A DNA stretch of 64,000 nt from an uncultured Chloroflexia bacterium (lineage in GTDB: Bacteria; Chloroflexota; Chloroflexia; QHBQ01; JADMIH01). The stretch is from the NCBI GenBank assembly GCA_963797095.1, contig CAWCNY010000004.1:656580-720579 (forward strand), given 5' to 3'. Below, in pieces: positions 3,640 through 63,073 of the stretch. How positions within the stretch are numbered: position 1 is the first letter of the stretch; each line of letters begins with the position of its first letter. Below the pieces are notes generated by a model. It made no database searches and was not told the DNA's origin. It saw nothing but the letters and a program-made list of their open reading frames with translations. A program made the translations under genes and the position numbers.

Positions 3640-4508
3640 AGCGTCCTGCCCACCCTTTCGGTGCTGTCTAGGCCGCCGCTTGATTTGAGAATATTGAGAA
3701 GGCGCTGTCGATAACCCGAGAACCGTTCGTCGCTCAGACTGGCGAGGGAGCGTGGACGCTCGATTTCGATGTTCACCCGCGCCACCACATGGCCGGGCCT
3801 GGGCGATAGAACATACACGGTATCAGACAATAGGATCGCCTCGTCAACATCGTGCGTTACAAGAATGAAGGTACTACCCATGCGGGCCGAAGCCGCAATC
3901 AACCATTCGTGCATCCCCGCTCGCGTAAGAGCGTCGAGGGCACCGAAAGGCTCATCCATGAGCATCAGGCCGCGCTCAAGGATTGCGGAGCGTATGAAGG
4001 ATACGCGCTGGCGCATGCCTCCTGATAGTTGTGAAGGATAGCTATTCGCGAAGCCCTCAAGCCCAAGCTCTCGAAACAGAGGCAGCACACGCTCACGCGC
4101 TTGTGGCTTGGAAACGCCCTCCACCTCAAGGCCCACCGCTGCGTTGTCCAGCGCGCTACGCCAGGGGAGAAGAAGATCGCGCTGGGGCATGTAACCCACT
4201 GCTGATTTTGGATTTCGGATTTTGGATTTTGGATTAGGCACGAGATCAGCCGTTGCAACGGGCGACCTATAAGGCGTCAGTGTTACAGTTCCACTGTCGG
4301 TAACATCCAAGCCTGCCAGGATCCCCAGAAGAGTGCTCTTTCCTGAGCCTGACGGCCCGAGGATGCTGGTGAAACTGCCCGCAGGCACATAGAGATCGAG
4401 GTCGCGGATGGCCTGGACGCGACCGCCGCCTTCGCGCCGGAACGACTTGCTCACGCCGCGCACCTGCACCTCAATTGGCACTATCTTATTTGCTATCTGG
4501 ACTGTCAT
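3636..4508 (-). CDS. ABC transporter ATP-binding protein
   Basis: Walker A GPSGSGKST, LSGGMRQR signature and Walker B LMLMDEP. Carries an in-frame insertion PNPKSKIRNPKS encoded by a heptamer array. Confidence 0.85.
   Translation of the reverse strand: MTVQIANKIVPIEVQVRGVSKSFRREGGGRVQAIRDLDLYVPAGSFTSILGPSGSGKSTLLGILAGLDVTDSGTVTLTPYRSPVATADLVPNPKSKIRNPKSAVGYMPQRDLLLPWRSALDNAAVGLEVEGVSKPQARERVLPLFRELGLEGFANSYPSQLSGGMRQRVSFIRSAILERGLMLMDEPFGALDALTRAGMHEWLIAASARMGSTFILVTHDVDEAILLSDTVYVLSPRPGHVVARVNIEIERPRSLASLSDERFSGYRQRLLNILKSSGGLDSTERVGRTL
4204..4235. repeat. Heptamer tandem array (gattttg)x4.5, in-frame inside the ABC ATPase CDS
   Basis: Direct read: gattttg gatttcg gattttg gattttg gatt. On the coding strand this gives N-P-K-S-K-I-R-N-P-K-S. 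Confidence 0.85.
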
Positions 4509-4536: not shown

Positions 4537-4570
4537 CATGAGTGATGTACCCCGGCGCTCTGAAGCTACT
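4537..4570 (-). terminator. Expression-platform terminator of the TPP riboswitch
   Basis: Minus-strand stem agagcg...cgcucu followed by UUUUUGUUG, between the aptamer and the ATPase start. Confidence 0.5.
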
Positions 4571-4574
4571 GTGC

Positions 4575-4670
4575 GATGGCTTCCTTCGCCGGCATTACCC
4601 GGATCAGGTTCAAGCGGTCGACGGCGGGTCTGGCCGTCCTCTCAGCCTGTGTCCACAGGCCCCCGCGCTC
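4575..4670 (-). promoter_or_regulatory. TPP (THI-box) riboswitch
   Basis: Minus strand reads GGGGCC...GGCUGAGAGG...AGACCC...UGAACCUGAUCCGGGUAAUGCCGGCGAAGGAAG. This matches the THI-element core (CUGAGA, ACCC, AACCUGAUCYGGRUAAUGCCRGCGNAGGGAAG). It sits in the 5' leader of the ABC operon. Confidence 0.8.
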
Positions 4671-4745
4671 TCCATATTGAATTGTGATCCTCCCTGATAT
4701 CGTACCAGATAAAGGCTTACCGTGCAAGATTCACGCGCACGATGC

Positions 4746-19211: not shown

Positions 19212-19230
19212 CCGGGGCAAAGCACTGAAC

Positions 19231-19330
19231 GAGTAGCAGGTAGCGAGTAGCGAGTTTTCCTAGTTCTGACTACCGACTACCGACTACCGACTGCCGACTA
19301 CCAGTAACTAGGAACTTGGAACTTGGAACG
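19231..19330. repeat. Compound heptamer arrays and hairpin: (gtagcgag)x2, (ctaccga)x5, (ggaactt)x2
   Basis: Direct read. The ttcctagtt / aactaggaa inverted repeat brackets the (ctaccga)5 array, between hbd and the acyl-CoA dehydrogenase gene. Confidence 0.8.
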
Positions 19331-20492
19331 AGGTAATCAGATGGAATTCGCCTTAACAGAAGAACAAAGATTGATCCAGCAGACGGCCCGCGAATTCGCG
19401 GACGAGAAGCTGGCACCCCTGGCCGCCGAGTACGACCGGAGCGAAGAGTTCACGGCCCCGCAGGCCAAAATGCTGGCCGAGATGGGCTTCCTTGGCATGA
19501 TGGTGCCCGAAGAATACGGCGGCGCGGGCCTGGACACCGTCTCCTATGTGCTCGCCATGGAGGAAGTCAGCCGGGCATGCGCTTCAAGCTCGGTGACTAT
19601 GACCGTCCAGAACTCGCTCGTCAACTGGCCCATCCAGTATTACGGGAACGAAGAACAGAAGCGCAAATACCTGGTGCCCCTCGCACGGGGCGAGATCCTG
19701 GGGTGCTTTGGTCTCAGCGAACCCGCCGCAGGCTCGGACCCCGCTTCGATGGCGACCACCGCCATTGAGGACGGCGACAGCTACATCCTCAACGGCTCCA
19801 AGATATTCATCTCCAATGGAGGGGTATCGCAAATAGCCCTCGTGTGGACGCAAACCGACCGCGACCTCAAGCACAAAGGGATCACCTGCTTCATCGTCGA
19901 TGCGGATGCTCCCGGCTTCGTCATAGGGGCTGAGGAGAAGAAGCTCGGCATCCGAGGCTCCAACACCACCGAGCTGCACTTTGAGAATTGCCGCGTGCCC
20001 AAAGCCAATATGCTTGGCAGCCTGGGCGAGGGGTTCAAGATCGCCATGCAAACGCTCGATGGGGGGCGGATCGGGATCGCGGCGCAAGCCGTCGGGATCG
20101 GGCAGGCTTGTGTTGATGCATCCGTCAAATATGCACATGAGAGGCAGGCGTTCGGCAAGCCGCTGGGAGACATTCAGGCGATCCAGTTCAAGATAGCAGA
20201 TATGGCTATGGAGGTGCAGGCATCGCGCCTACTGACTTTGCACGCGGCCTGGACCAAAGACCAGGGGGTGCGCTTCTCCAAGGAAGCCGCGATGGCGAAA
20301 TTGCACGCCTCTGAAGCCGCCACAAATGCCGCGCATATGGCGGTGCAGGTGCACGGCGGTTACGGCTACCTGCGCGACTTCCCGGTGGAGAGGCTCTACC
20401 GCGACGCTCGCATCACCGAGATCTACGAGGGCACCTCCGAGATACAACGTATCGTGATAAGCAGCATGGTGCTCAAGGAAGGCCAGCGGTAA
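19323..20492 (+). CDS. Short-chain (butyryl-CoA-type) acyl-CoA dehydrogenase
   Basis: Full ACAD N/M/C domains. Catalytic-base region YEGTSEIQ. 389 aa. Confidence 0.9.
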   Translation: MERGNQMEFALTEEQRLIQQTAREFADEKLAPLAAEYDRSEEFTAPQAKMLAEMGFLGMMVPEEYGGAGLDTVSYVLAMEEVSRACASSSVTMTVQNSLVNWPIQYYGNEEQKRKYLVPLARGEILGCFGLSEPAAGSDPASMATTAIEDGDSYILNGSKIFISNGGVSQIALVWTQTDRDLKHKGITCFIVDADAPGFVIGAEEKKLGIRGSNTTELHFENCRVPKANMLGSLGEGFKIAMQTLDGGRIGIAAQAVGIGQACVDASVKYAHERQAFGKPLGDIQAIQFKIADMAMEVQASRLLTLHAAWTKDQGVRFSKEAAMAKLHASEAATNAAHMAVQVHGGYGYLRDFPVERLYRDARITEIYEGTSEIQRIVISSMVLKEGQR

Positions 20493-22395: not shown

Positions 22396-22425
22396 TGCTC
22401 CCTCCCAGAGAGTGATACGTGACCT

Positions 22426-22475
22426 GCTTCGTACTGCGTGCTGCGTATTTACTCGTCACTCGTCACTCGTCACTC
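22426..22475. repeat. Heptamer arrays (tactgcg)x2 then (actcgtc)x4
   Basis: Direct read, between the response regulator and the histidine kinase. Confidence 0.85.
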
Positions 22476-22493
22476 GTAATCATCAGCCTCGTC

Positions 22494-24167
22494 TCACACG
22501 CACGGCACTTCAACTACCACCATCGTACCCTGGCCTGATGGGTTGGGGCCTATTTCGAACCTGCCGCCCAGTTGTTCTACTCGCTCCCTCATAGAGGTGA
22601 GACCAAGCGTGCCCGGCTTCACCAGGCCCGTCTCAATTCCCACACCGTTGTCCTTTATCTTCAGCATAACACATTCGTCCTGTGAGTTGAGATAGATGGC
22701 GGCTTCGGTAGCCTTGGCGTGCTTGACTATATTATTTAGGGCTTCCTGGGCCACTCGGAACAGGGCTTTTTCGATGTTCAGAGGGAGCCGTCCCTGCCCC
22801 TTCGTGTCCACGCGCACCACCAAACCATAGCGGTCGCTGATCATTTTGGCGTGCTTGGTGAGCACCGCTGCCAAACCCTCCTGCTCAAGATTAGCGGGCC
22901 GCAGCTCGAAGATCAGGGTGCGCATCTCCTTGAGAGCAGCGTTCGCCGTTTCGTACAGCAACCTGATCTGAGAGCGGGCTTTCTCCTGGTCGCTGTCGAA
23001 AAAGAGATTGGCTGCCTCTGCATTCAGCACCATGCTGAACAACGACTGTGATAGGCTGTCGTGCAACTCACGCGCAAGCCTGTTGCGCTCTTGCAAGATA
23101 TCCTGCTCGCGAGACCTATCGTAGAGGCGAGCGTTCTCTATCGCGATAGCCGCCTGATTCGAGAAGGCCAGCACGGTCCTTCCGTCGTCCTCGTCATAAT
23201 ACTCAGGATCGCTCTTGTCGAGGGTCAGCGCACCGATTACTTCATCACGGAACATGAGGGGCACGCCAATCCAAGATCGCGTTGGATCGTCTCGGTTGCC
23301 TATGTAGCCCGGTTCTTCACGCACGTTGCTAAGCACCACCGGGGCCTGGCCTTCGAGGAGCCTCCTGGTTAGCTCGTTCTCATTGCGGTCGAAGCTGACG
23401 CCTATAATATCCTCACCTTCGGTAAATCCCTTGGCCGCAATCACGCGCAGGTGGTCCCCGAACAGGAGCATTATCGAGGACCGGTCGTATTGCACCACCT
23501 CGGCAAGCTGGTCGAGGATGAGGGCAAGCACGTTATCCAGGTCGAGCGACGAAGATATCAGGGCGCTTGAACGCACCAGCGCAGACACTTCGCGCACGCG
23601 CCGCTTCAGTTGCAGGCGCTGGCGCTCAAGCTCGGACACCTGCTCCTGCAATTGCGCGTTGAGAGCCAGCGAATAGAGCTTGCTGAACCGGATCACAAGC
23701 CAACGCAAGGCAGAATCGAGCGACCGCGCCATCTCCAGCGCGGCGCTGTCATCACCGTCCCAGCCCTGCTCGCGGCGGATGATTGGGAGCAACGCCTCGT
23801 CAAGAAGCAGATGCCCCTCGATCACCTCCGATATGTCGAATCCCTGCTCGGCTCTTTGCTCGCAAATCGTTTGCGAGTAAGCTATAAGCCCATCATAGTT
23901 CCCCGACCGGAACAGATCGGCCAGCGCGGTGATGCAACTGTTCGAGCAGCTCTGTAGCTCGGTGACGGGGCGCTCGCGGTAGTGGGAATCCTCCATCGAG
24001 TAGAGGAGCTTGACCCAGGCGGCGATCAATTCGTCCTTATAGGCTTCTAACAGGTCAGCCAGGCTTGGATTTTGGATCTTGGGCTTGGGATTTTGAATCT
24101 TGGCACGCGCTTTCTGCGCACCCTGATCGGTGTAAGGTTTTGTTTCTGTCGATTCTACTCTAGCCAT
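22494..24167 (-). CDS. Sensor histidine kinase (GAF + HisKA_3 + HATPase_c), NarX/DegS-like
   Basis: LARELHDSLSQSL H-box and a C-terminal HATPase (G-boxes). Cytoplasmic GAF domain. N-terminal insertion KIQNPKPKIQNPS encoded by a heptamer array. Confidence 0.85.
   Translation of the reverse strand: MARVESTETKPYTDQGAQKARAKIQNPKPKIQNPSLADLLEAYKDELIAAWVKLLYSMEDSHYRERPVTELQSCSNSCITALADLFRSGNYDGLIAYSQTICEQRAEQGFDISEVIEGHLLLDEALLPIIRREQGWDGDDSAALEMARSLDSALRWLVIRFSKLYSLALNAQLQEQVSELERQRLQLKRRVREVSALVRSSALISSSLDLDNVLALILDQLAEVVQYDRSSIMLLFGDHLRVIAAKGFTEGEDIIGVSFDRNENELTRRLLEGQAPVVLSNVREEPGYIGNRDDPTRSWIGVPLMFRDEVIGALTLDKSDPEYYDEDDGRTVLAFSNQAAIAIENARLYDRSREQDILQERNRLARELHDSLSQSLFSMVLNAEAANLFFDSDQEKARSQIRLLYETANAALKEMRTLIFELRPANLEQEGLAAVLTKHAKMISDRYGLVVRVDTKGQGRLPLNIEKALFRVAQEALNNIVKHAKATEAAIYLNSQDECVMLKIKDNGVGIETGLVKPGTLGLTSMRERVEQLGGRFEIGPNPSGQGTMVVVEVPCV
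24066..24102. repeat. Heptamer array (gattttg-like)x5, in-frame inside the histidine kinase CDS
   Basis: ggattttg gatcttg ggcttgg gattttg aatcttg. The coding strand gives KIQNPKPKIQNPS. Confidence 0.8.
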
Positions 24168-27540: not shown

Positions 27541-27585
27541 ATTCGTCACTCGTCACTCGTCACTCGTCACCCGTCACTCGTCGTC
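27541..27585. repeat. Heptamer array (attcgtc)(actcgtc)x3(acccgtc)(actcgtc)
   Basis: Direct read. Overlaps the longest-ORF N-terminus of the histidine kinase (translated SSLVTRHSSPVTRR). Confidence 0.85.
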
Positions 27586-29220: not shown

Positions 29221-29275
29221 TATAGGAGCGAACGGTCGTAAGGAGCGAACGGTCGTAAGGAGCGAACGGTCGTAC
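29221..29275. repeat. Tandem repeat, 3 x 17 bp (aggagcgaacggtcgta)
   Basis: Three perfect direct copies immediately after the histidine kinase stop. Confidence 0.9.
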
Positions 29276-30124
29276 GCACACAAAGCAAGTAGTCCCAAAG
29301 GGACGCAAGAGAGTAGCCCAGGGCGTAAGCCCTGTGGTAAGGCAAGGAAAGTGCCAAAGCCCCGAGGGGCGTAAGAGGACGCACAAGACAACAACCCCAA
29401 CCCCTTTGTGATCCCTTCGTGCTCTTTGCGCCTTAGTAGTTCAAAACACCAGGCTTCGCACATCTCACGCATAAAAAGTCATACCAATAGGTACTTGCAT
29501 CCACAGAACAAGTGCGCTAAGATCCTACACAAGAAGTACTTTCAACCTCCCTGCCGCGCAGCAAGGAGGGCAAAAGGACAAGACTGGTGTCCCTGTGTAT
29601 CTTTGCGTTAGTACCTTTACAAACCACATAAACCATCACTACTACCAGCACTTTACAAACCAAAGAGAATGGTGAGCCAAAAGCCGGTGGCTCTCTCAAC
29701 ACCACCCCCCACCCCTCCGGTCTCTCATCACCGGACCCTTACAGCAACCCGCAAGTAGCCCACAAGGCGAACACAAGGGAACCTCACAAGGGAAACAGCA
29801 CGGAGCAGCGAAGCAGTGTGCATTCGTGTCGCACCCTCTAAAGGCAAGAGCAATCTTGTGCTAACTGCAAACACGAGCCCAGTTGCGCCATAGGGACATC
29901 CCTTCTATTCAGCAACAGCCACAACGAAACACAAAAAGGAAAGGGTGCACAAGCCCAAAAGCAAGTGCACCCCCTTTCCCATACCCATCAATCACCAAAT
30001 CCAACAAGAAATCCGCAATTCCGAACTCTGCACTCCGCACAAGGCCTTCCATTGATCTTGTTTGCACTGGAAACTTGCGGCGGGCAAAGTTATAATTCTC
30101 AGGATGGGGAAACGAACGGACACC
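29276..30124 (+). other. About 850-nt ORF-free A+C-rich region with many short GC stems (candidate long structured RNA or 5' UTR)
   Basis: Top strand strongly depleted in T and G. No credible ORF on either strand. Recurring motifs (gcaagtag[tc]cc[ac]aa(a)gg at 29286 and 29746, gcgtaag). Hairpins such as gggtgcac...gtgcaccc. Confidence 0.3.
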
Positions 30125-35810: not shown

Positions 35811-35893
35811 GGTCTATTGCTTACTTCGTATTGCGTATTGAGGGATAAAAAGACGGCACTCGGCGACAGCAGCCACCGCGAGGCTATTATACC

Positions 35894-42286: not shown

Positions 42287-42901
42287 CTAGGACATTATCT
42301 CATCGATACCAATTGATGCATCAACTGCTCCCGGTACAGATAGAAACTCACCCTTACCTACCCGCCGGGTATTTGCGTAATCTCCATTTTGCAGGTTGGT
42401 GTACACTTCGACAGTGCCTCGCCTGAGATTGATTATCCAATATTCCGGAATTTCTGACTCCGCATAGAGAGCACGCTTCATTTCTGACTCCTCATAGAGA
42501 GCACGCTTCTTTGTTCTATCATGCTGGAGTGACGTGTCAGAAACTTCAATAGCCAGCAAAACATCTTTAGCTACGGGCGGCGTTGATCGGGAATAATTAT
42601 CGGGTAAACGTAGTAGAGCAACGTCAGGCTGAGGTTGAGAGTCGCTTTCAGGTAGATCGATTGAGTTGCCTTGAGGCCAAATGAGCACGAAATCACCCGC
42701 TCTTCGCTCAAGCAACTTTATTAGGCGAGCAACAATACGTTGATGATCGTAACTGGGCGGCGGCATCTCGAGAATTTCCCCTCTTATGAGTTCCAGGCGA
42801 GTATTATCCTCAAAGACGCCAGCCTCCACCATCCGCTCGAACTCTTCAAGGCTGATGTGGTGTCGTTTTGGTTGGGTGGTTTGTTTGAGCGCAACTGCCA
42901 T
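42287..42901 (-). CDS. Uma2 family (DUF820) PD-(D/E)xK putative endonuclease
   Basis: Conserved Uma2 blocks (LIRGEILEMPPPSYDHQRIV, DVLLAIEVSDTS, EIPEYWIINL). Contains a 30-bp in-frame tandem duplication. The longest ORF extends to 42979. Confidence 0.65.
   Translation of the reverse strand: MAVALKQTTQPKRHHISLEEFERMVEAGVFEDNTRLELIRGEILEMPPPSYDHQRIVARLIKLLERRAGDFVLIWPQGNSIDLPESDSQPQPDVALLRLPDNYSRSTPPVAKDVLLAIEVSDTSLQHDRTKKRALYEESEMKRALYAESEIPEYWIINLRRGTVEVYTNLQNGDYANTRRVGKGEFLSVPGAVDASIGIDEIMS
42451..42510. repeat. 30-bp tandem duplication (tttctgactccgcatagagagcacgcttca x2, 3 mismatches) inside the Uma2 CDS
   Basis: Direct read. Encodes the duplicated decapeptide (K)RALYEESEM / KRALYAESEI. 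Confidence 0.8.
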
Positions 42902-44885: not shown

Positions 44886-45376
44886 CGGACGAAAGACTAA
44901 AGGCCTGGTATTTTGAATACATCGCCCTTCGTCCTTCGCCTATCTCTTGCTTACTGAAACATCGCTTCCCACATCTTATCAGGTGCGCGGCGTATCAGTC
45001 AACGCCTCAAGAGGTATTTCAAGGGTACTTACCGGGCAGTATAAGTACCACTCTTGGATGGGTAAGCTCTCAGATTAAGGGTGGGAGGGCTGGGAGAGGA
45101 GGGCCAAGCACTGGTCAAAGGGGTTGAGACCCTTAGCTCGCCAGGTGCCGAACAGGGTAGCCAACGTCATCCGGGTGGCTGATCCCTTGGGCGATTGACT
45201 ACCACCTGATACCTTGCGCATCACCACCACAGGACGGATTGACCGTTCCGCCAGGTTGTTGTCAGAGGATAAGGTGGGCACTATCACGAACTGGAATAAC
45301 TCCTCCTGGTGGCGCAGCAGTCTCTTGCACAAGGTGTGGCATGGGTGCTTGCTCTTTGGGGGCCGTTACCGTTCTT

Positions 45377-45412
45377 GCCCCCGCCCCCGCCCCCGCCCCC
45401 GCCCCCGCCCCT
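45377..45412. repeat. Hexamer microsatellite (ccccgc)x6
   Basis: Direct read. Encodes poly-Gly on the minus strand, at the frame break of the IS66 transposase. Confidence 0.85.
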
Positions 45413-45651
45413 GCCCTGTGGCCCTTGTTTGCCCCCGCCCTGTGGCCCGAACTCCTTGGCATCGGCATACTGCGCACCTAGCTTGGCAACCCCTTCCACC
45501 AACCGCCGGTACTCTCTTACACGCTGCTCCCACTTGTGTGGCTCTTTTGTGGCTTCGTCTGCAGTGGGAGGGCCAAGTTCGTGTTCTTCCAACAGCTTAT
45601 GGGCATCATCGTACAGTGCTCGCACTCCCCTGGCCCATTCATGCACTTCCT

Positions 45652-45812
45652 CGTTAGTGGGGTTAGTGGGGTTGGTAGGGTTGGTAGGGTTGGTAGGGTT
45701 GGTAGGGTTGGTAGGGTTGGTAGGGTTGGTAGGGTTGGTAGGGTTGGTAGGGTTGGTAGGGTTGGTAGGGTTGGTAGGGTTGGTAGGGTTGGTAGGGTTG
45801 ATGGGGTGCTCC
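45652..45812. repeat. 9-bp tandem repeat (gggttggta)x about 17, encoding (PTN)n in-frame in the IS66 transposase
   Basis: Direct read. The translation shows PINPTNPTN...PTN. Confidence 0.9.
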
Positions 45813-46968
45813 TCTTTCAGCTTATGCAAATCACGGAGCAGATGTGCCCAGCACCGCTGGTGCTCTCCTGGGAAGTCGTTGTAGCCACCGTAGAAGTCAC
45901 TCGACATTACTTGACCCTTTTCCCCAAAGTTAGACCCCATTATTCGTTTGGCTACCGCTCCCCCTCGGCTCTGGTCGTACTCGTACAATCGCTCTCCATC
46001 GGGCGTGAAGAAGCCCCAGATATAGCCGTTTTGTCCCCCTTCTCGCCAGGTGGTTTCGTCACCATGTACCACATGGCTATGGCTCCTTCGAACCCTCTTC
46101 TTTATGGAGGCAGCAGCCTCCTTCAGAGGTTCGGCTTGCACCATTCGATGCAACAACTCCACAACCTCACCCGAAGAGATGGTCAACTTGTGTATGGTGT
46201 ACAGGTACTCTTTTATGAGGAGGAGGGGCATCCTCAACGATGTGCGCAGATGAGCTATGAGGGAGGCGATACGCACCCCCATTCTGCCTTGCCCAATCAC
46301 CTGACCTGTAAGGTCGACAGTGGGGTAGTGCCACCTCCCACAACGAGCACACCACCCCTTGAATAGCTGGTGCTCAGTGACTTGCACAGGAGGGGGTGGA
46401 GGGAGTTCTATCACCTGGCGTCTGGAGGCGAGTTGGTGCTGACGAAGGGTGTAGCCACAATCGGGACACTGCTGCAGGTGGTGCTCAATTGTTGAGGTGG
46501 GCGATTGTTCACGGCGGCGGGCACCATTGTGCTCTTTAGCTCTGGGGCGTCTGGGAGGCTTTGGGGTGTTGTTCTTCTTGGGAGTGGAGGGCTTGACGAA
46601 TGATGGGGCACCTGGCGAGCCAGAGCCAGAGGCTAGCTGTGTCTGCATCTGCTCCAACCTGGCTTCCAACTCGGCGATGCGCTCCAGAGCAAGGCGCAAT
46701 TGCTCTTTGAGTTGTGCATTCTCTGCCCGCAGATGGGCTAGTTCTTCTTCCAGGTTCATACTTCATAGAATACAGTGGAAATTGCTCCACCTCAAGTCTG
46801 ACCGCATACCTTGGATGGTACAATATGCATAGGCCGTTTCGCTATGCTATAATCAGTTCAATTCGTAGGTTCGCAGCTTTACCTTAATCGCAGTTTCGTC
46901 ATGCCGGAGAAGGGTTCTTGTTTAGCTCAATAGCAAGGGCAGCCACACCAATCTACCATACCCGAGCC

Positions 46969-49793: not shown

Positions 49794-49817
49794 CCACTCG
49801 TCACTCGCCACTCGTCC
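49794..49817. repeat. Heptamer array (cactcgt/cactcgc)x3
   Basis: Direct read. Downstream of comEA. Confidence 0.75.
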
Positions 49818-50677: not shown

Positions 50678-50680
50678 CCA

Positions 50681-50752
50681 GTACCGGGTAACGAGTACCG
50701 AGTATCGAGTGACGAATTTGCCGCAACGTACTCGGCACTTGTTACCCGGTAC
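50681..50752 (+). promoter_or_regulatory. Long imperfect hairpin (22-bp arms, 2 mismatches, 28-nt loop) between pspA and the next gene
   Basis: gtaccgggtaacgagtaccgag ... ctcggcacttgttacccggtac. The left arm is itself built from heptamers. Confidence 0.5.
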
Positions 50753-54377: not shown

Positions 54378-54397
54378 CACTCGCCACTCGTCACTCA
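54378..54397. repeat. Heptamer array (cactcgc)(cactcgt)(cactca)
   Basis: Direct read, between the convergent LivK-like and ANTAR genes. Confidence 0.7.
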
Positions 54398-55006: not shown

Positions 55007-55226
55007 AGTGCACTCTCCTGAAGAAAGTTTACTCTCAATTATAACATGCACCCATTAGTCAAGCTCGTATACAATTCACCGGCCCACACCTTTTCTTGCG
55101 CAAAACTTCACTCCCAGAACACACCTGTGGTATAATAGTTTTATGCACAAACGTTCTGATTCGGCGCTCAAAACCGCATCGCTGGAGGTCGCGTATCCAC
55201 CCCAAGAAGAGCACACTGTAAACACT

Positions 55227-56522
55227 ATGAACTCCCAGGTGCCACTCGCCGCCCGCATGCGCCCGCGCATTCTTGATGAGATTGTTGGGCAGGAGCATAT
55301 CCTTGCTCCGGGCAAGACTCTGCGCCGCGCAATCGAGGCCGACCGTCTCCCTTCGCTCATTCTTTGGGGACCACCAGGCAGCGGCAAAACCACCCTGGCC
55401 CAGGTGATCGCCAACACCAGCCACCGCATCTTCGCGCCCGTAAGCGCCGTATCCGCGGGTGTAGCCGACCTGCGCCGAATCGTCAAAGAAGCCGCCGAAC
55501 GCCTGGCTGATACAGGGCAGCGCACGATGCTCTTCATAGATGAAATCCATCGCTTCAACAAAAGCCAGCAAGACGCCATCCTCCCACATGTCGAGGACGG
55601 CACGGTTACCCTCATTGGCGCTACCACCGAGAACCCATCCTTCGAGGTCAATTCGGCCCTTCTCTCTCGCTCGCGCGTGGTAGTGCTCCAACCCCTCAAG
55701 CCTGAACACCTCGAACGCATAGTGGACAATGCCCTCACCGACAAGGAGCGGGGTCTGGGCGGCCTGCACGCCAGCCTCAGCGCCGACGCACGAACTCATC
55801 TGCTCGCCGTTTCAGACGGCGACGCCCGTTCACTCCTCAACACCCTTGAGCTTGCCGCTGTTTCAACACAACCCAACCCTGATGGACAGCGCACGATCAC
55901 AATTGAAGTGATAGAGGACGCCGCCCAGAAGCGTTGGCTCCAATACGACCGCGCAGGCGACGGGCACTACGACGCCATATCCGCCCTCCACAAATCGGTG
56001 CGCGACTCCGACCCCGACGGCTCCCTCTACTGGCTGGCCCGTATGCTTGAGGCAGGCGAAGACGCGCTATATGTTGCCCGGCGCATTGTGCGTATGGCGA
56101 CCGAGGATATCGGTATGGCCGACCCCCACGCGCTCACCCTCTGCATGGCCGCTCAACAGGCGGTGCACTTCCTCGGTATGCCCGAAGGCGAGCTTGCACT
56201 GGCCGAGGCCGTGGTCTATCTATCGGTCGCACCCAAGAGTAATGCTGTCTATACCGCCTACAGCATGGTCAAGGATGATGTAGCCCGCACCCGCAACGAG
56301 CCTGTACCCATTCACCTGCGCAACGCCCCCACCCGTTTGATGAAAGGCCTCGGCTACGGCAAGGGCTACAAGTACGCCCACGACTACGAGGGCGCGCAGG
56401 TTGACCAACAGCATCTACCCGATTCCCTGAAAAGTCGCCACTACTACCACCCAACCGATCGAGGCCACGAAGCTCGCATCAGCCAGAGAATGGAGGAACG
56501 GCGGACGACGAGTGAAGAGTGA
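55227..56522 (+). CDS. rarA: Replication-associated recombination protein A (AAA+ ATPase)
   Basis: RMRPRILDEIVGQEH. Walker A GPPGSGKTT. MgsA C-terminal domain. The final residues (TTSEE) are encoded by a heptamer array. Extended -10 TGtGGTATAAT upstream. Confidence 0.9.
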   Translation: MNSQVPLAARMRPRILDEIVGQEHILAPGKTLRRAIEADRLPSLILWGPPGSGKTTLAQVIANTSHRIFAPVSAVSAGVADLRRIVKEAAERLADTGQRTMLFIDEIHRFNKSQQDAILPHVEDGTVTLIGATTENPSFEVNSALLSRSRVVVLQPLKPEHLERIVDNALTDKERGLGGLHASLSADARTHLLAVSDGDARSLLNTLELAAVSTQPNPDGQRTITIEVIEDAAQKRWLQYDRAGDGHYDAISALHKSVRDSDPDGSLYWLARMLEAGEDALYVARRIVRMATEDIGMADPHALTLCMAAQQAVHFLGMPEGELALAEAVVYLSVAPKSNAVYTAYSMVKDDVARTRNEPVPIHLRNAPTRLMKGLGYGKGYKYAHDYEGAQVDQQHLPDSLKSRHYYHPTDRGHEARISQRMEERRTTSEE

Positions 56523-56540
56523 AGAGTGAAGGTGCGCCCG

Positions 56541-57302
56541 TAAAGGGTCTTAGTGCCAGTGAGATTGCTCCGAACAATCTCGCTTCCTGAGGGAAAGGAA
56601 GCTACTCAGTGCCTTACCTCAAGAGTGAAAACTCGTGAGGGAACATAGCACGGCATCAGTAAGGGAAAACAATGGTTCCAGTCAACCGGAGGGTTTCTCA
56701 GAGTAATTTCGACATGGTGAAGGCTAAACTGCTTGAAGCTCAGAACCGAGTGGGGCAACTTGAACCGGGTGAGCAGGCTGGTGACAGGTGACAGCAAGGC
56801 TGGTGACACTCACTTTTGGCCCAACATCCCATTTCTCCTCATGATGGGATGTACCCTCTAGGCCAACACAGTCTCAGTAAGAGAATAAAGGTTTGAACGA
56901 GCCACCTAAATCGAAAGCATCTGGTTTAAGACTAAACGGGGATAGCTCGAGTGTAAATGCCACTGCGTTAGATACAAGTCTGACACAAGGCTATGGTTGC
57001 AGGACCTGAATATTACACCAGGCTACGGAGCGAGAGTAGTAGTCAGTGGAGTAATGCCCACTCTCGGCGCACGTTAACGGCGTGTACAAGGCGAAGTCTC
57101 GCAGGTCCTTCACTTGCAAGGGGGAAAGGAGGAGCACATAGTGCCACAACAACCGAAAATCCTACTTGCAATACTTGGCTTGCCAGCCAAGGAACGAAGG
57201 ACGGGAAAGCCGAGATACTCAGAAATGAGTACGTCCGGTTTGGAGGCGAGGGCAGTGAAACCTGAGATAGCAATACCTCAAGGCGCACGGCCCTTAGCCT
57301 AC
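56541..57302 (+). mobile_element. ORF-less group II intron (IIA-like, Ll.LtrB-type RNA domains I-VI) with only a stub of the intron-encoded protein
   Basis: Starts GUGCGCCCGUAAAGGGUC (compare Ll.LtrB GUGCGCCCAGAUAGGGUG). Domain I-III blocks GGAACAUAGCACGG and GGCUACGGAGCGAGAGUAGUAGUCAGUGGAGUAAUGCCCAC (compare GGUACGGAGUACUCGUAGUAGUCUGAGAAGGGUAACGCCC). Domain V AAGCCGAGAUACUCAGAAAUGAGUACGUCCGGUU (AGC triad, GAAA loop) at 57207-57240. Ends ...GCCUAC. Domain IV has SD AAAGGAGGAG plus GUG and only about 60 codons. Confidence 0.75.
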
Positions 57303-57345
57303 AGTGAAGAGTGACTACCGACTGTTAATAGTTCGATAATAGACC

Positions 57346-60300
57346 GTGGACCTGACCTGTCTTGCTTTTATCGGCGCAATCTTGCTCCTGCTGGGGCTGG
57401 GTGTGCTAGTCTATGACTCGCTTCGGCGCAAGCAAAACCAGAATCCCTATCATTTCCCCGACGTTACAACCCATGCCCTTGACGATACGGCCCTTCAAGC
57501 GCAGCTACAGCCTTCCCCCCCTTCACAAACGAGCAAACCGCAAACTCCCGGTATAGCAACAACCTTCTTGCGCCTTTATTCCGCGGCTGTACAGGCCGGT
57601 GGCAGGCGGATCAGCAGATGGAAGCAGCCTCGTAGCAGCCAGACAGCCATTCCCACAGTACAGAGTAGACCAACAGATCTCATGGCGCGCATAGCAGCCG
57701 TGATATCCCGCCGGGCATTGGTAGTAATCGTGACGGCCTCTCTTGCCCTCTGCGTCGTGAGTGTCACCATCCTGGTGACAGGCGCGAATGGTTCATCGAG
57801 ACCTCCCGGCGTAGTGATAGGCATTGCGCGCTTTGCAGGCGCACCCCAGGAAGGGTCGTCTGATCCAACCACCTTGTTAGCCGACGATATCCTCCGAGGC
57901 GCGGATGGTGCTGCTATCACTATCCGCTCATCACGCATCGTCCCTGTGAACGACTCGCAAGCCCAGGCCGAGCGCGCCCGCCTCGACGCCGATTTCCTCA
58001 TCTGGGGCGATTTCGGGCCATCAGGAGCGATCACGGCCAACCTCGTCCTCTCACCCGATTTCGCTCCTGTTACACAGCCGTGGCAAACCTATGACGATCC
58101 GGATCCCGATCTGCTGATCCTGCCCGCGAGTGCCACCGTCTATCTACGTGCTGGTGGTGGCCTCGATCCCCTCGTGCCTCTCTCACTCGCACTGGTACGC
58201 TGGCACTGGGGCGACTTTGCGGGCGCGTCCGTTGCGGCCTGGGGCGCGCAGGCCACCCTCGACGAGAATGGCGGCTCCAGCCTGGCACGCTTCCCATCCG
58301 TCGTGCAAGCCTACGCCCGCCTCGCCCAGGGAGACTATTCTGATACCGCTTCTGTCGTTGACAGCATTGAGGACGCGGGCGCTATCGGCCCGCCCGCGCT
58401 GCTTGCCCGCTCTGCCGCTCGCCTTCTCACCAACGATTATTCGGGCGCGAGCGACGATGCAAATCGCGTGATCTCCGACCGCGACGCTACAGCCGCCATC
58501 CTTGCTCGCGCTTACCTGCTTCGAGCCAGAGCACGCTACAACGTGGGCAGCCTTACCGATGCGCTCGGCGACCTCGATCAAGCCGCGCGCCTCGACCCTA
58601 CCCTTCTGAGGGTTCGCCTCGAGCGCGCCGAAACTTACTATCGCCAGGCCCAGCCATCGCTCGCCAACGACGAGCTGGTCGCTCTCCTGAAGTCCGCCCC
58701 TTCAGCCGCTCCCGCCTACCGTCTGCTCGGCCTCGTGCGCCTTATGCAGGGCCAGCCCGATGGCGCTCTGGAACCGTTGAGCAAAGCCCGCGAGCTTTAC
58801 GCTGGCTGGACCGACGCCCAACGCAAAGACGAAGCGCAGGCCGAGGCCCAGGGTGATAGCCACCGCGCCCATGCTGCCTCTGACAATATCGTAACGCTCA
58901 ACAAAAGGCTGGCGGGCATCGCCCTTTACGAGGGGATGGCCTATGCAGATAAAGCCCGTAACGAGCCTTCCGAAAGCTTCCTTGCGGGCATATGGCGCGG
59001 CATTCGCGGCGAGCCATCGACAGCAGACCGCGCACTTGCCAGAATGCAAGAGGCATCCCGCCTCGACCCCCGCAGGCCCGATATACCACTCCAGATGGGT
59101 AGCTTCTACACGTTTCTCGGCCAGTTCGACAAGGCCGAAGAGCAGTTGCGCCTCGCTCTCGATCTCGATCCCAACTCGCCCGACTCTTACATGGCTCTCG
59201 CACAGCTACAAGAGAACGAGGGCAAAGCCGCCGATGCTATTTCTACGCTCGAATCGTTCGTTGCAACCTCGCCCCGCTACTATCCTGCTTATGACTACCT
59301 CTACAATCTCTACACCTCGGCAGGCAACCCTCAGCAAGCCCAAGCGGCCCTTGAGAACGCCCTCTCCGTAGAGCCACTAACACCGGGTGACCACCTCTGG
59401 CGCGGGAAAATCCTGATTACCCTGGGCCGCCAGGATGAAGCAATTGGCGAATTGCAAGCCGCCACCGCCGATCCCGAAGTGTGGGAGGCCCATTTCCTCC
59501 TTGGTAACATCTATGCGGACCAGGGACGTGGACCCGACGCCCTGGCCGAATACCAGGCTGTGCTTGCCAAGCGACCCAACCACGCAGGCGCCTTGCTGGG
59601 CGCGGGGCGCTTGCTGGTGCTGGCGGGCAGGGGAGACGAAGCACAGACCCTGTTGGAAAGGCTGACATCGGTCGCGCCTTCCAACGTTGAAGGCCACATC
59701 TCTCTGCTTGGCCTGTTGCTGGCAAAAGGAGAGACCGACCGCGCGGTGGCCGAAGGGGAGCGTGCCGTGGCGGCAAACCCCGAGCGCGCCGACGCCTACT
59801 TCTTCCTGGGCACTGCCTACGAGGCCAGGGAGGATTGGGCCAAAGCCGCCGACGCCTACAAGTCGGCCACCGACCGCAACCCGCAGGACTTCCAATCGTT
59901 CTTAAACTGGGCGCGTACCCTATTGCGGCAGGACCTCTATAGCTCCTCTATCGACGTGAGCAACCAGGCAATAACTCTTCGACCCTCCGATCCCCAGCCT
60001 TACCGCTGGCGGGCAGAATCCCAGCTTGCGCTTGGCAATGCCGATGGCGCGCTTTCGTCGCTCGGCGACGCAGTGCGGCTCGGCCCCAACGACCCATTCG
60101 CGCTTGCCCTCACCGCCCGCGCCTATACCACCAAAGGCGACGAGCAATCCGCTCTCGATTATGCAAACCAATCTTTCAAAGCCAGGCCGCAGGATGCTAC
60201 AGGTCAGCTTGCCCTGGGCGACATCTACCTCACCTGGGGTCAGGCAAGTGAGGCCATCCAGGCATTCGGCACCGCCACCGAGCTAGCTTCCACAGACTAT

Positions 60301-60861
60301 GACGTGGCGCTTGCTCTCACGGGCGAGGCACGAGCCTACATGCTATCGGGCGATACGCAACACGCGATGCAATACTTCGCACAGGCCACCCAGCGCGACC
60401 CCAACGCGGGAGAGCCACACCTCTACCTGGGCACGCTTTACACTCAGGCGAACGCCGGCGACGACGCTTTGCGCGAGTACCGCTCTGCCGTCGCGTTGCG
60501 CCCCAACTGGCCCCTTGCGCTATACTATGTCGGTAAGGCTTACCTGCTCCGGCGCGACCTCACCGACGCAGGCGCCTCCTTTTCCAGGGCGGTTCAGTAT
60601 TCGCCCAACATGTTTCAAGCCTGGTTCGGCCTCGGCCTCGCCTACCGCGATGGAGGGCACCCACAGGAAGCGGTGCAGGCGTTCACCAAAGCCTCAACCC
60701 TCAAGCCCGACTACGCGGAAGCCTGGCTCTACCTGGGCCTTACCCTCGAAGAATCAGGCGACCGGGCCAGCGCAACCGAAGCCTTCAGCCACGCTCGCGA
60801 CACCGCCCCCACCGACGCCATCCGCGCCCAGGCCGAAGAAGGCCTCTCAAGAGTAAGATGA
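57346..60861 (+). CDS. Large TPR-repeat protein with an N-terminal TM anchor
   Basis: 1171 aa. N-terminal hydrophobic helix, then more than 15 TPR-like repeats (A..Y..A..L.P.. pattern). Confidence 0.75.
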   Translation: MDLTCLAFIGAILLLLGLGVLVYDSLRRKQNQNPYHFPDVTTHALDDTALQAQLQPSPPSQTSKPQTPGIATTFLRLYSAAVQAGGRRISRWKQPRSSQTAIPTVQSRPTDLMARIAAVISRRALVVIVTASLALCVVSVTILVTGANGSSRPPGVVIGIARFAGAPQEGSSDPTTLLADDILRGADGAAITIRSSRIVPVNDSQAQAERARLDADFLIWGDFGPSGAITANLVLSPDFAPVTQPWQTYDDPDPDLLILPASATVYLRAGGGLDPLVPLSLALVRWHWGDFAGASVAAWGAQATLDENGGSSLARFPSVVQAYARLAQGDYSDTASVVDSIEDAGAIGPPALLARSAARLLTNDYSGASDDANRVISDRDATAAILARAYLLRARARYNVGSLTDALGDLDQAARLDPTLLRVRLERAETYYRQAQPSLANDELVALLKSAPSAAPAYRLLGLVRLMQGQPDGALEPLSKARELYAGWTDAQRKDEAQAEAQGDSHRAHAASDNIVTLNKRLAGIALYEGMAYADKARNEPSESFLAGIWRGIRGEPSTADRALARMQEASRLDPRRPDIPLQMGSFYTFLGQFDKAEEQLRLALDLDPNSPDSYMALAQLQENEGKAADAISTLESFVATSPRYYPAYDYLYNLYTSAGNPQQAQAALENALSVEPLTPGDHLWRGKILITLGRQDEAIGELQAATADPEVWEAHFLLGNIYADQGRGPDALAEYQAVLAKRPNHAGALLGAGRLLVLAGRGDEAQTLLERLTSVAPSNVEGHISLLGLLLAKGETDRAVAEGERAVAANPERADAYFFLGTAYEAREDWAKAADAYKSATDRNPQDFQSFLNWARTLLRQDLYSSSIDVSNQAITLRPSDPQPYRWRAESQLALGNADGALSSLGDAVRLGPNDPFALALTARAYTTKGDEQSALDYANQSFKARPQDATGQLALGDIYLTWGQASEAIQAFGTATELASTDYDVALALTGEARAYMLSGDTQHAMQYFAQATQRDPNAGEPHLYLGTLYTQANAGDDALREYRSAVALRPNWPLALYYVGKAYLLRRDLTDAGASFSRAVQYSPNMFQAWFGLGLAYRDGGHPQEAVQAFTKASTLKPDYAEAWLYLGLTLEESGDRASATEAFSHARDTAPTDAIRAQAEEGLSRVR

Positions 60862-60886: not shown

Positions 60887-63073
60887 TTGTCGTCCGTCGT
60901 CCATCGTCCATTGACCACCCTGACACTTACTGCCGCGCAGACTGACGCCCGCATCCGCGCCAACGAAGGGACCGTAAGCTGGCGCACTGCCGCCCTCGAT
61001 ATTGGAGCGGTGGGGCTGGCGTGTATCATCTTCCTGGCCCTTACCCTCTACCACCTTGATCTTCCTGGCCTCTACGCCGACGAAGCCTTCGACGTGATCC
61101 CGGCCATGCAACTCTTGCTCGGCCACCCGGTGGAGCTACAGCGCAACGTCGGCCTCCATGTCTTCGGTCTCGATCTGCCCCTCATGTCAAGTAGCGACTA
61201 TCAGGGCGTTACCAGCACCTACCTCGTTCTACCTTTCTTCGCGCTCTTCGGCATTAACGTGGTGTCACTCCGCCTGATGACCGTAAGCGTGGGCGTGCTG
61301 GGTGTAATTCTTACTTTCTTCCTGGCGCGCCGCTGGTTCGGCGCTGGTACGGCACGTGTCTCAGTACTCCTGATGGCTACCTCTCCCGCCTGGGTCTTCT
61401 GGAGCAGGCTCGGCGTGTATGTCGTCTCCCAGGTGATGCCAATCGCCGCCGGATCGTTGATCGCCTTCACTGTATGGGTGCGCAGAAGGCCCATGGGCCA
61501 CCGCAACGGCCCCCTTTACGCCGGGCTGTTTCTCCTCGGCCTTGGCCTTACCACCAAGCTCCTTTTCCTCTGGTTCATCGTAGCTGTACCCCTCGCCGCG
61601 CTCGTACTTTATGGAAAGCGCGTCTGGGACACACGGCGTGATTGGCGGCTCGAACGTGGACGCTGGCTGCGCATCGCCATTCTATCGGCACTGGCGTTCT
61701 GTCTCGGAGCCTCGCCCTTCATCCTATACAACATCCTTTCAGGCGGCACCTTCAGCCTGATCCGCCACACTCTCTCTGCGCCGGGTACCACCAGCGGCGT
61801 AGACAACACCGCTATCCTTCGCAACCTCTGGACCCGCGCGGACGACTTCCGGGTGCTGCTCGATGGTGGCTACTTCTGGTTCCAGGCACAGCCCGGCACC
61901 ATACACTTCAACCCGCTCACACCCCTCGTCTTCGTGCTATCCGCAATCGGCTTGATCGTATTGATATTCACCGACCACCCGAACAGCGGCCCTACATTGA
62001 CCGCCGCCAGGCCGCTGGCCCAGGGTGCGGGGCTTACACTCCTCTCCCTTTTTGTTGCTTTCTTACTTTCCTTAGGTTTCCTAACCGGCACGCCCGCTTC
62101 AATCCTGGTGCTGTTCGTTGCTCTCCTTGCCTTTGTGGCGGCGATATTGGTGGTGCGATTCGCCTTGCTCAATCCTGGCGCGTGGCTGGCTTCCGGTTGG
62201 CTCCTGCTGGCGGCAACCGTACTTTCCGGCACAATATGGTGGATTGGTGGGGCAGGCCGTCCCGAAGGACGCGCCCCCGAGGCCTTCGTGGGCCTCTGGC
62301 CAATCGACGCCACCGGAGCAATCTTCTGGATATCAGGTGCGGGCCTGATGCTCCTCCTGGGCTGGGATGCCACACCCGTGCCGGGCCAGCGTCCCGCCAC
62401 AGCGGCCATTGCCCTCACCGGGCTGGTGATCGGGCAGAGCGCCGTCACCGTTTCCGGCCTCTGGAGCACCCATCTTATTGTGCTATTCCCCCTGCCCCAG
62501 ATGGTGATCGCCGCCTTCGCCATCTCGCTCGCCCGCCGCTTCGCCGCCCGCGTTCGCCGCGACTGGCAGGGCTGGCGGCGAAGGCTCGCATTTACTCTCA
62601 CCCTGGTGGCCCTCGCAGGCTCTATTATGGCCTTTGATGTAGGTGTAGCCTACCAGTATCACAGCGATATGGCGATCACAGGCGGCAGCGCCACTTTCTC
62701 AGACTCGATCTACACTCTTTCCACCTATCTTGATACCCTGAACCCACGCCCCAAAGTGATCAGCCTCGATTGGGGCATCAAGCGCCCCGTCCAGTTACTC
62801 ACCCAGGACCGCGTGAACACCATTGACGCATATGGGTACGAAACCACCCCCAGCGATGCAACCAAGCAGGCCTTAGCCGACCTCGTAAACCAGCCTGACA
62901 CCCTCTATCTGTTCCATGACAAACAGGCGGGCATAGCATACCCACGCTTCGATCTCTTCAAGCAAATCGCAGCCAACGCGGGCAAGCAACCCTCCCTGGA
63001 GCGCACATTCTACAGCCGCAACGGACTCCCCGTCTACGAAGTCTACTCACTATCACCCGGCCCCAAACCCTGA
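60887..63073 (+). CDS. GT-C superfamily glycosyltransferase (ArnT/PMT-like, GT39/GT83-type) with C-terminal periplasmic domain
   Basis: At least 12 TM helices. First-loop acidic motif YADEAFD typical of GT-C enzymes. 728 aa. Adjacent to the TPR protein. Confidence 0.65.
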   Translation: MSSVVHRPLTTLTLTAAQTDARIRANEGTVSWRTAALDIGAVGLACIIFLALTLYHLDLPGLYADEAFDVIPAMQLLLGHPVELQRNVGLHVFGLDLPLMSSSDYQGVTSTYLVLPFFALFGINVVSLRLMTVSVGVLGVILTFFLARRWFGAGTARVSVLLMATSPAWVFWSRLGVYVVSQVMPIAAGSLIAFTVWVRRRPMGHRNGPLYAGLFLLGLGLTTKLLFLWFIVAVPLAALVLYGKRVWDTRRDWRLERGRWLRIAILSALAFCLGASPFILYNILSGGTFSLIRHTLSAPGTTSGVDNTAILRNLWTRADDFRVLLDGGYFWFQAQPGTIHFNPLTPLVFVLSAIGLIVLIFTDHPNSGPTLTAARPLAQGAGLTLLSLFVAFLLSLGFLTGTPASILVLFVALLAFVAAILVVRFALLNPGAWLASGWLLLAATVLSGTIWWIGGAGRPEGRAPEAFVGLWPIDATGAIFWISGAGLMLLLGWDATPVPGQRPATAAIALTGLVIGQSAVTVSGLWSTHLIVLFPLPQMVIAAFAISLARRFAARVRRDWQGWRRRLAFTLTLVALAGSIMAFDVGVAYQYHSDMAITGGSATFSDSIYTLSTYLDTLNPRPKVISLDWGIKRPVQLLTQDRVNTIDAYGYETTPSDATKQALADLVNQPDTLYLFHDKQAGIAYPRFDLFKQIAANAGKQPSLERTFYSRNGLPVYEVYSLSPGPKP

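Follow-up and report, generated by a model that had tools for sequence, protein, structure and literature searches.

The 64,000-nt stretch of DNA from an uncultured Chloroflexia bacterium analysed here (hereafter the window; contig CAWCNY010000004.1) contains a complete group II intron of the Ll.LtrB-like IIA class that lacks an open reading frame (ORF). The intron is 771 nt long, occupies positions 56532..57302 of the plus strand, starts with GUGCG and ends with CCUAC, and lies in the 823-nt gap between rarA and a TPR-repeat gene. The analysis established its identity, class and structure, the deletion of its ORF, the homing site of its family, and the match of its exon-binding sites (EBS) to intron-binding sites (IBS) in the 5' exon. 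Taken as a whole, the locus is best explained, at a probability that we put at about 0.85, by a non-autonomous ORF-less IIA intron that made a near-cognate, ectopic landing in an array of heptamer repeats.

The Rfam family RF00029, which covers domains V and VI (D5/D6), matches 57205-57302; its score of 43.7 bits exceeds the gathering score, 40 (E = 2.7e-5 over the whole window and 5e-7 in a local search). This match is the sole one in the 64-kb window, and neither Rfam nor BLAST of the intron against the window revealed a second intron copy. None of the Rfam group-II-D1D4 families matched at E ≤ 10; these models represent particular subgroups only, and a missed match does not exclude IIA. The initial annotation, which had read a complete group II intron in this gap, is thus borne out by the RF00029 match, by the GUGCG and UAC ends and by a covarying fold (below), although of the two Rfam searches it proposed, a match to RF00029 was obtained and D1D4 was not. 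It had also placed the 5' end at 56541; both the GUGCG and the terminal AC exist as described, but the intron starts at 56532 with GTGCGCCCGTAAAGGG... and ends at 57302 with ...CCCTTAGCCTAC. The same boundaries apply to L003, a related intron in another assembly, where exact excision restores an rve_3 ORF. Both exons are heptamer repeats, as had been suggested: the 5' flank reads GACGAC(GAGTGAA)3G| and the 3' flank |AGTGAAGAGTGACTACCGAC, and the TGA stop of rarA (56520-56522) falls within the array, 9 nt 5' of the intron. The surroundings of the intron are as follows.

55143..56522, plus strand: rarA/mgsA, the upstream host gene (Pfam MgsA_C 1e-69, AAA_assoc_2, AAA and RuvB_N; ORF list)
56510..56531, plus strand: 5' exon, (GAGTGAA)x3 + G array (repeat finder: period 7, 3.1 copies, 100% match)
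57303..57322, plus strand: 3' exon, the rest of the heptamer array, AGTGAA GAGTGAC TACCGAC (sequence)
57346..60861, plus strand, the same as that of the intron: downstream TPR-repeat gene (Pfam TPR_2 5.7e-58 and many other TPR families)

Neither the TPR protein nor two intron-internal ORFs had an exact match on record. The relatives used in the comparisons below, with their likeness to the window intron and the state of their ORFs, are these.

L001/L004, plasmid of Ca. Chlorohelix allophototropha: 5' fragment only, 75% identical and truncated by a mobile element
L003, Chloroflexota metagenome-assembled genome from another assembly: full length, 732 nt, 85% identical; no ORF
L006, metagenome: 66-84% identical over local BLAST matches; ORF present, the contig ending inside it
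L013, JGI metagenome: 78% identical to intron nt 1-648; ORF for protein P0043
L014, Logan assembly: 78% identical to intron nt 1-648; ORF for protein P0054
L016, GCA_025491075.1: 82% identical to intron nt 1-648; ORF present
L017/L018, ENA/NCBI assembly: more distant, including the 3' end; ORF interrupted by a recombinase gene

A consensus fold of domains I-III (D1-D3), built from the sequences of five relatives with the window copy included, comprises 160 pairs with 96.5% of the cells paired, and 57 of the 160 pairs are changed on both sides. Column shuffles gave 21 ± 3.4 double-changed pairs, with 0 of 500 reaching 57, and slid structures gave 6-10. The fold of D4-D6 was derived from two sequences only, the window copy and L003, and contains 63 pairs, 7 of which are compensatory. 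All six domains therefore fold in the way that the initial annotation expected, D1-D3 with strong covariation, and they are arranged along the intron as listed here.

56537..56940, plus strand: domain I (five-sequence consensus fold, covariation)
56775..56796, plus strand: 22-nt insertion or duplication in a D1 terminal loop (alignment columns gapped in all four relatives)
56943..57025, plus strand: domain II (consensus fold, covariation)
57026..57029, plus strand: J2/3 linker CGGA (invariant in five relatives, alignment A2 columns 503-506)
57030..57102, plus strand: domain III (fold, covariation; collinear profile match to Ll.LtrB nt 374-526, E = 6.8e-15)
57105..57202, plus strand: domain IV without ORF (two-sequence fold; basal stem 57105-11 / 57196-202)
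57207..57241, plus strand: domain V, 35 nt (RF00029 alignment: AGC triad 57208-10, GAAA loop 57222-25, AC bulge 57231-32)
57244..57300, plus strand: domain VI (RF00029 match and two-sequence fold)

Within D4, DIVa-like stems at 57114-57171 enclose a Shine-Dalgarno sequence, AAGGAGGAG (~57126-34), and a GUG (57141), and this stem-loop is kept in L003, L013, L014 and L016. The capping hairpin of D4 (57174-80 / 57185-91), CUUGGCU-UGCC-AGCCAAG in the window copy, appears in L003 as the compensated CUUAGC-AACA-GCUAAG. Three pairs of D5 are likewise compensatory between the window copy and L003. The description of D5 as canonical holds for the AGC triad, the GAAA loop and the 2-nt AC bulge, but the 5' strand carries one extra bulged nucleotide (A57213 in the window, C at ~738 in L003) that is absent from the canonical 34-nt D5 and the RF00029 model; the ORF-containing L017 has a canonical 34-nt D5. 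In D6, the bulged A57296, 7 nt from the 3' splice site, is the branch-point candidate (column 202, unpaired between the pairs 154-201 and 153-203). Given the covariation of D1-D3, the features of D4-D6 and the invariant CGGA of J2/3, the ribozyme scaffold is therefore complete. The 22-nt insertion in D1 is private to the window copy and produces a tandem GGTGACA GGTGACA (repeat finder, 56780-56794); heptamer duplication may thus also act inside the intron in the host genome.

The protein class of the intron was judged on the proteins of its siblings, the window copy having no ORF. Protein P0043 of L013 matches LtrA best among the solved group II reverse transcriptases (RTs), with E = 4.7e-44 as against 4.8e-26 for GsI-IIC and 7e-21 for TeI4h, and from residue 4 on the two proteins share 40% identity. 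The L017 protein combines Intron_maturas2 with an AI2M-like HNH domain, that is, maturase and HNH endonuclease modules. At the RNA level, a D1-D3 profile of the family matches Ll.LtrB collinearly at nt 374-526 (E = 6.8e-15) and nt 75-126 (E = 0.012). Since P0043 is closest to LtrA and the RNA profile match is collinear, the Ll.LtrB-like IIA label given in the initial annotation holds. Its description of blocks near-identical to Ll.LtrB is overstated: the global RNA identity to ORF-deleted Ll.LtrB is ~50%, and the best local block reaches 62% over 136 nt.

The intron of the Lactococcus lactis ltrB gene, a IIA intron encoding LtrA, resembles the window intron in domain order, in its 5' GUGCGCCC start, in the common blocks GGGAACAnAGCACGG, ACUAAC.GGGGAUA and UACGGAG....GUAGUAGUC, and in a DIVa with Shine-Dalgarno sequence and start codon. 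The two also agree in the layout of target recognition, with EBS2 facing positions -12..-8, EBS1 facing -6..-1 and a candidate delta directly 5' of EBS1. In contrast, Ll.LtrB is 2492 nt long with its ORF, as against the 771 nt of the window intron without one, and besides the ~50% RNA identity, the window D5 has the extra bulged nucleotide. EBS2 of the window family lies in an unpaired stretch with no clear hairpin loop, the interrupted gene is a transposase instead of a relaxase, and the protein frame of the window family, as seen in L017, continues through D5 into D6.

No RT ORF exists within the intron, and no gene for an intron-encoded protein was found in the window. What remains of the ORF can be read in D4. 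After the GUG at 57141, codons 57141-57179 give VPQQPKILLAILG, which agrees with P0043 at each of its first 13 residues. Past this point P0043 continues as VPQQPKILLAILGKMGQKPEV..., and the ORF-containing relatives run on into the reverse transcriptase, whereas the window sequence passes into the capping hairpin and the D4 3' strand. The L017 protein ends with ...LQERKRLHRENGRAGYAERCKVGSEGRAVKPGVAIR*, and D5 and D6 supply its last codons. In the window, the frame gives ...AKERRTGKPRYSEMSTSGLEARAVKPEIAI..., and because it can be aligned to the end of the L017 protein (AKERR...GKPRYSE...RAVKPEIAI), a C-terminal remnant is present too. The deletion of the RT/maturase/endonuclease ORF, as first annotated, is thus confirmed. 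The accompanying statement that D4 keeps a ribosome-binding site, a GUG and about 60 N-terminal codons needs amendment: the first two and a true protein remnant are there, but only 13 codons are N-terminal. The frame from GUG 57141 stays open for 58 codons through D5 and D6, and the 66-codon ORF (57114-57314) is made of the N-terminal stub, the C-terminal remnant and read-through of D4-3', D5 and D6. We rejected this mini-ORF as a gene, as the equivalent frame of L003 stops after 14 codons and the 66-residue ORF has no Pfam match. In L017 (6914-7966 and 7891-7988), the protein frame passes D5 and ends within D6, so that the C-terminal tail is coded by catalytic domains; a serine-recombinase gene inserted in L017/L018 divides the ORF, and the complete intron lies within an IS110-type transposase gene.

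The relatives also define where this family inserts. L003, L013, L014 and L016 interrupt a transposase at a single codon position, ...ALDNIF(V/T)ER(L/F)WR(S/T)(V/I)K(Q/Y/W)E|..., and the joined exons of L003 yield a continuous rve_3 integrase-core domain over the junction (E = 1.1e-18). The family homes to this conserved position of an rve-type (IS3-like) transposase gene (ERLWRSVKYE|). We found no ER.WR..K.E transposase motif in the 64-kb window.

Comparison with the structure of Ll.LtrB predicts EBS1 in the loop of a hairpin that helix 15 encloses. This hairpin (56824-56852) has a strongly covarying stem (helix 16, with 7 double-changed pairs) and a variable loop of 9-11 nt. Read at fixed alignment columns in six introns, EBS1 pairs with positions -6..-1 in 29/36 cases and EBS2 with -12..-8 in 24/30, a total of 53/66, where chance would give ~37% per position. 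The elements in the window copy and the pairing in each intron (5' exon, then IBS2/EBS2 and IBS1/EBS1) are given below.

56759..56763, plus strand: EBS2 CUUGA, pairing with exon positions -12..-8 (4/5 in the window)
56835..56842, plus strand: candidate delta CU (56835-36) and EBS1 CCUCAU (56837-42), in the loop of hairpin 56824-56852
56520-56524 and 56526-56531, plus strand: IBS2 UGAAG and IBS1 GUGAAG of the window (from the pairing below)
Window, 5' exon -14..-1 AGTGAAGAGTGAAG: UGAAG/CUUGA 4/5; GUGAAG/CCUCAU 5/6
L003, 5' exon CGTCAAGCAAGAGG: UCAAG/UUUGA 5/5; AAGAGG/AUUCGU 4/6
L013, 5' exon GGTAAAATATGAGA: UAAAA/CUUGA 3/5; AUGAGA/UUUCAU 6/6
L014, 5' exon CGTCAAATGGGAAA: UCAAA/CUUGA 4/5; GGGAAA/CUUCGU 4/6
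L016, 5' exon TATAAAATATGAGT: UAAAA/CUUGA 3/5; AUGAGU/CUUCUU 4/6
L006, 5' exon CTGTTACAATTGCG: GUUAC/GUAGC 5/5; AUUGCG/CGCAGU 6/6

The pairing in L006 holds only with the 5' splice site shifted 1 nt downstream of the position first assumed. With this shift (L006 10410-10430) the pairing is 11/11 and the intron starts with UUACG instead of GUGCG, which may reflect a degenerate copy or a sequencing error. The candidate delta CU of the window copy pairs with +1A (57303) and +2G (57304), 2/2, and the GU of L003 pairs with +1G and +2U (wobble), these two being the only 3' exons compared. A IIA intron would be expected to use such a delta, next to EBS1 on its 5' side, in place of a separate EBS3. 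The EBS1 variants CCUCAU, AUUCGU, UUUCAU and CUUCGU are complementary to A(U/C)GA(A/G)N, and CUUCUU of L016 is off at one position. Within the KYE motif of the transposase, A(U/C)GA(A/G) corresponds to the end of the Tyr codon (UA-U/C) plus the Glu codon; the codon that follows begins with N.

The EBS1 of the window copy, CCUCAU, is a perfect match to the transposase AUGAGG and not to the GUGAAG that it faces. Its cognate site would be UCAAG-N-AUGAGG|AG, the transposase-type target being written as UCAAGNAUGAGG|AG, while the actual site is UGAAG-A-GUGAAG|AG, which scores 11/13 (4/5 + 5/6 + 2/2) including one G.U wobble. Both strands of the window contain 77 sites of at least 11/13 (~6e-4 per position), compared with ~59 in shuffled sequence; at this frequency, the occupied site is far better than a random position, though not unique. 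The EBS check proposed in the initial annotation thus succeeded, with EBS1 and EBS2 located against the 5' exon, and the heptamer array is a near-cognate ectopic site, an incidental landing place.

Three other candidates for the exon-binding sites were rejected. CUUCACU (57108-57114), an exact complement of the flanking AGUGAAG, is the 5' strand of the D4 basal stem and is also kept in relatives with unrelated exons; we judge the complementarity to be a coincidence. UCACUUUU (56810-17), which could form 8 bp with AAGAGUGA, is the 3' strand of the covarying helix 14, in a register at odds with L003. The loop GGUGACA, considered as EBS2, is conserved and shows no covariation with the exons.

In the search for further copies, a scan of genome contigs, a set without the source genome, returned only L003 and L004. 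A metagenome scan with a 25-base pattern gave 0 matches, one with a 19-mer gave 7 loci, of which L006 and L007 alone are related, and two scans of viral contigs gave 0 matches. The related 5' fragment on the Ca. Chlorohelix allophototropha plasmid (L001 3950-4215; NZ_CP128402.1, ~102,953-103,218) is unannotated; it starts inside the 3' end of a coding sequence annotated as "BRO family protein" and is ended by other mobile DNA.

In D4, the window copy is laid out like L003, and there are compensatory changes between the two in the D4 hairpin, D5 (the three pairs above) and D6. The same deletion thus occurs at two sites, a heptamer array and a transposase gene, in the only two copies known, which suggests, on sequence comparison, an old, structurally maintained non-autonomous lineage. 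Because the D4 layout is common to the two copies, yet they are 15% divergent and sit at different sites, one old D4 deletion with continued spread of the ORF-less form would be the simplest reading. A broader joint reading, which we offer tentatively and would not bet on, is that of an old "MITE-like" ORF-less IIA lineage spreading between genomes in Chloroflexota-type bacteria; it would have kept its ribozyme and DIVa through ~15% divergence while parasitising the RTs of its transposase-homing siblings, and would be able to escape into heptamer arrays that mimic its cognate site.

The proposed route to the present locus starts from an ORF-containing intron that would have homed into one rve-type (IS3-like) transposase site. 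A single internal deletion in D4 would have removed nearly the whole RT/maturase/endonuclease ORF and left DIVa, the putative protein-binding part (Shine-Dalgarno sequence, start codon and 13 codons), together with a short C-terminal remnant. The shortened RNA would recognise targets by base pairing via EBS2 CUUGA, EBS1 CCUCAU and delta CU, and, with an RT presumably supplied in trans, probably reverse spliced into UGAAG-A-GUGAAG|AG of the (GAGTGAA)n array. The landing site, 9 nt beyond the rarA stop, would have acted as a mimic of the cognate UCAAG-N-AUGAGG|AG.

The intron is probably co-transcribed with rarA as part of its 3' untranslated region (UTR): no terminator-like site was found between rarA and the intron, and promoter-like sites were seen 5' of rarA at 55107-36 and, a weak one, just 3' of the intron at 57311-40. 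Splicing would recreate an uninterrupted array, (GAGTGAA)4GAGTGAC, with the junction ...GAGTGAAG|AGTGAAGAG, and rarA would stay intact in an unspliced transcript. In a Logan assembly of the same genome (ERR11718635), contig L002 matches the window perfectly across rarA and breaks off after the first 29 nt of the intron (L002 3653-3681). De Bruijn assembly breaks where a sequence occurs in more than one context, and the break in L002 is suggestive, although not proof, of multiple contexts for the intron in that sample.

Present-day splicing, dependence on a protein acting in trans and mobility are properties that we infer for the window copy. IIA introns need their own protein for efficient splicing and reverse transcription, as established for Ll.LtrB. 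The DIVa element with Shine-Dalgarno sequence and start codon is a high-affinity protein-binding site in IIA introns, likewise established for Ll.LtrB (PMC2882425). Because of this need for protein and the DIVa retained in the window copy, dependence in trans on the protein of a full-length relative would be the best-supported mechanism, by analogy with the TeI3/TeI4 introns of Thermosynechococcus elongatus (PMC2882425).

Several points weigh against the explanation by a non-autonomous intron that landed ectopically. The trans-acting helper is putative: no gene for an intron-encoded protein is present in the window or tied to the source genome, and the best 120 matches of either protein search include no helper protein on the 727,631-bp contig that carries the window genes. 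The insertion site is non-coding, with nothing selecting for splicing. The D5 carries its extra bulge, which is common to L003 and so is not a fresh lesion, and D1 carries its private 22-nt loop insertion. Pairing fails at two positions of the site, -2 (A.C) and -11 (G.G), and the ORF-less lineage rests on just two copies. A rival reading is an inactive fossil, that is, one insertion whose helper was lost and which persists as a non-splicing, immobile relic in the rarA 3' UTR or spacer: the missing protein gene in cis, in the window and on the source contig, the place free of selection for splicing, the two EBS/IBS mismatches and the D1 insertion all fit it. In contrast, the catalytic hallmarks are intact (GUGCG, J2/3 CGGA, the triad, bulge and GNRA loop of D5, and the bulged A of D6), the helices of the D4 hairpin, D5 and D6 differ from L003 mostly by compensatory changes, DIVa is conserved codon for codon with the ORF-containing siblings, and the assembly break suggests more than one copy. 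We consider the fossil a possibility with rather less than an even chance; it concerns present activity only and is compatible with the identity and origin proposed here.

An autonomous, self-splicing ORF-less intron like C.te.I1, free of a helper and limited to splicing, would accord with the complete ribozyme core and with a documented bacterial case (PMC4424553). It is improbable here, given the retained DIVa, a putative protein-binding element with its Shine-Dalgarno sequence and start codon, the many ORF-containing members of the family, and the different sites of the window copy and its ORF-less sibling, which point to movement after ORF loss and hence to a need for RT. The initial annotation had asked whether the heptamer arrays act as homing or retrotransposition targets. 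The intron does sit precisely within a (GAGTGAA)n array with 11/13 pairing, and a periodic array repeats the site in three registers. However, among the 5 complete relatives whose 5' flanks are known, 4 occupy the rve-type transposase site, all at one position, and 0 a heptamer array; EBS1 is perfect for the transposase AUGAGG, not GUGAAG; and the ~15 other arrays of the window are unoccupied, only one of them (22467, minus strand) reaching 11/13. Furthermore, nearly all of the 77 window sites at 11/13 (shuffles ~59) lie outside arrays. We therefore regard a dedicated heptamer target of the intron lineage as very unlikely, and retain the near-cognate landing as the preferred explanation.

The arrays themselves are numerous. 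The repeat finder reported ~16 period-7 arrays in the window, ~15 besides the intron site, most of them within short intergenic spacers. The earlier count of more than 12 other places is therefore correct for period-7 arrays as such, but their units differ: GAGTGAC-type (plus strand CACTCGC, ACTCGTC or TCGTCAC), GACTACC, AGTACCG, GATTTTG, TCGTCCA and others. The exact GAGTGAA unit occurs at the intron site only, and so does AGTGAAGAGTGAAG with at most 1 mismatch (64-kb window); a GAGTG(A/G)C core occurs in five other arrays (7288, 22451, 27543, 49795 and 54378). Heptamer arrays of the window other than that at the intron lie, among other places, at these positions.

4204-4235, 7288-7314, 19230-19333, 22425-22477, 24065-24103 and 27543-27582
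35815-35840, 44922-44940, 49795-49816, 50680-50710, 54378-54396 and 60890-60911

The commonest array family is (GAGTGAC/GAGTGGC)n; its units each contain TGA, so that a run of three units stops all reading frames. Intergenic heptamer direct repeats are known, and unexplained, in several bacterial lineages, e.g., cyanobacteria and Beggiatoaceae (PMC4679880). The window arrays resemble the cyanobacterial STRR and the Beggiatoaceae TAACTGA repeats in their 7-nt tandem units, in having several units per genome and in their short intergenic spacers, but the units (GAGTGAC, GAGTGAA, GACTACC and others) are different (PMC4679880).

In bacteria, group II introns without an ORF are rare, though cases are documented (PMC4424553), and they serve as a bacterial model of intron multiplication in which the copies rely on a common protein that acts in trans in splicing and mobility (PMC2882425). 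In the case of the TeI3 ORF-less introns of T. elongatus, trans-mobilisation was shown experimentally (Mohr, Ghanem and Lambowitz 2010; PMC2882425). Like the window lineage, these are ORF-less derivatives of one DIV deletion with breakpoints in common, carry N- and C-terminal ORF remnants, retain DIVa, and have related ORF-containing introns, whose proteins can act in trans in T. elongatus and may do so in the window lineage (PMC2882425). However, TeI3 belongs to another class (TeI4h-type protein, a far weaker match) and a cyanobacterial host, and only two ORF-less copies of the window lineage are known, each in a different assembly. C.te.I1 of Clostridium tetani is also a bacterial ORF-less intron with an intact ribozyme, but its genome has no related protein gene and the intron no evident recent mobility, whereas the window intron belongs to a protein-encoding family and has kept DIVa (PMC4424553). 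The present intron reveals no new mechanism. It adds an ORF-less example of the Ll.LtrB class outside cyanobacteria, with a defined parent family, a defined cognate target (the conserved transposase motif) and a clear ectopic landing in host non-coding DNA. For annotation, it accounts for a 0.8-kb "empty" spacer and for the short-read assembly break there.

Elsewhere in the window, we observed a TPP riboswitch at 4564-4676 (minus strand, 67.1 bits) and an Acido-Lenti-1 small RNA at 29291-29336 (minus strand, 47.4 bits), the latter separated by 17 nt from a perfect tandem repeat of three 17-nt units (29224-29274). Repeats of GCCCCC x6.7 (45377-45416) and of the 9-nt GGGTTGGTA x15.7 (45660-45800) lie inside a long minus-strand ORF (45284-46759), and a 30-nt x2 direct repeat is located at 42450-42509.

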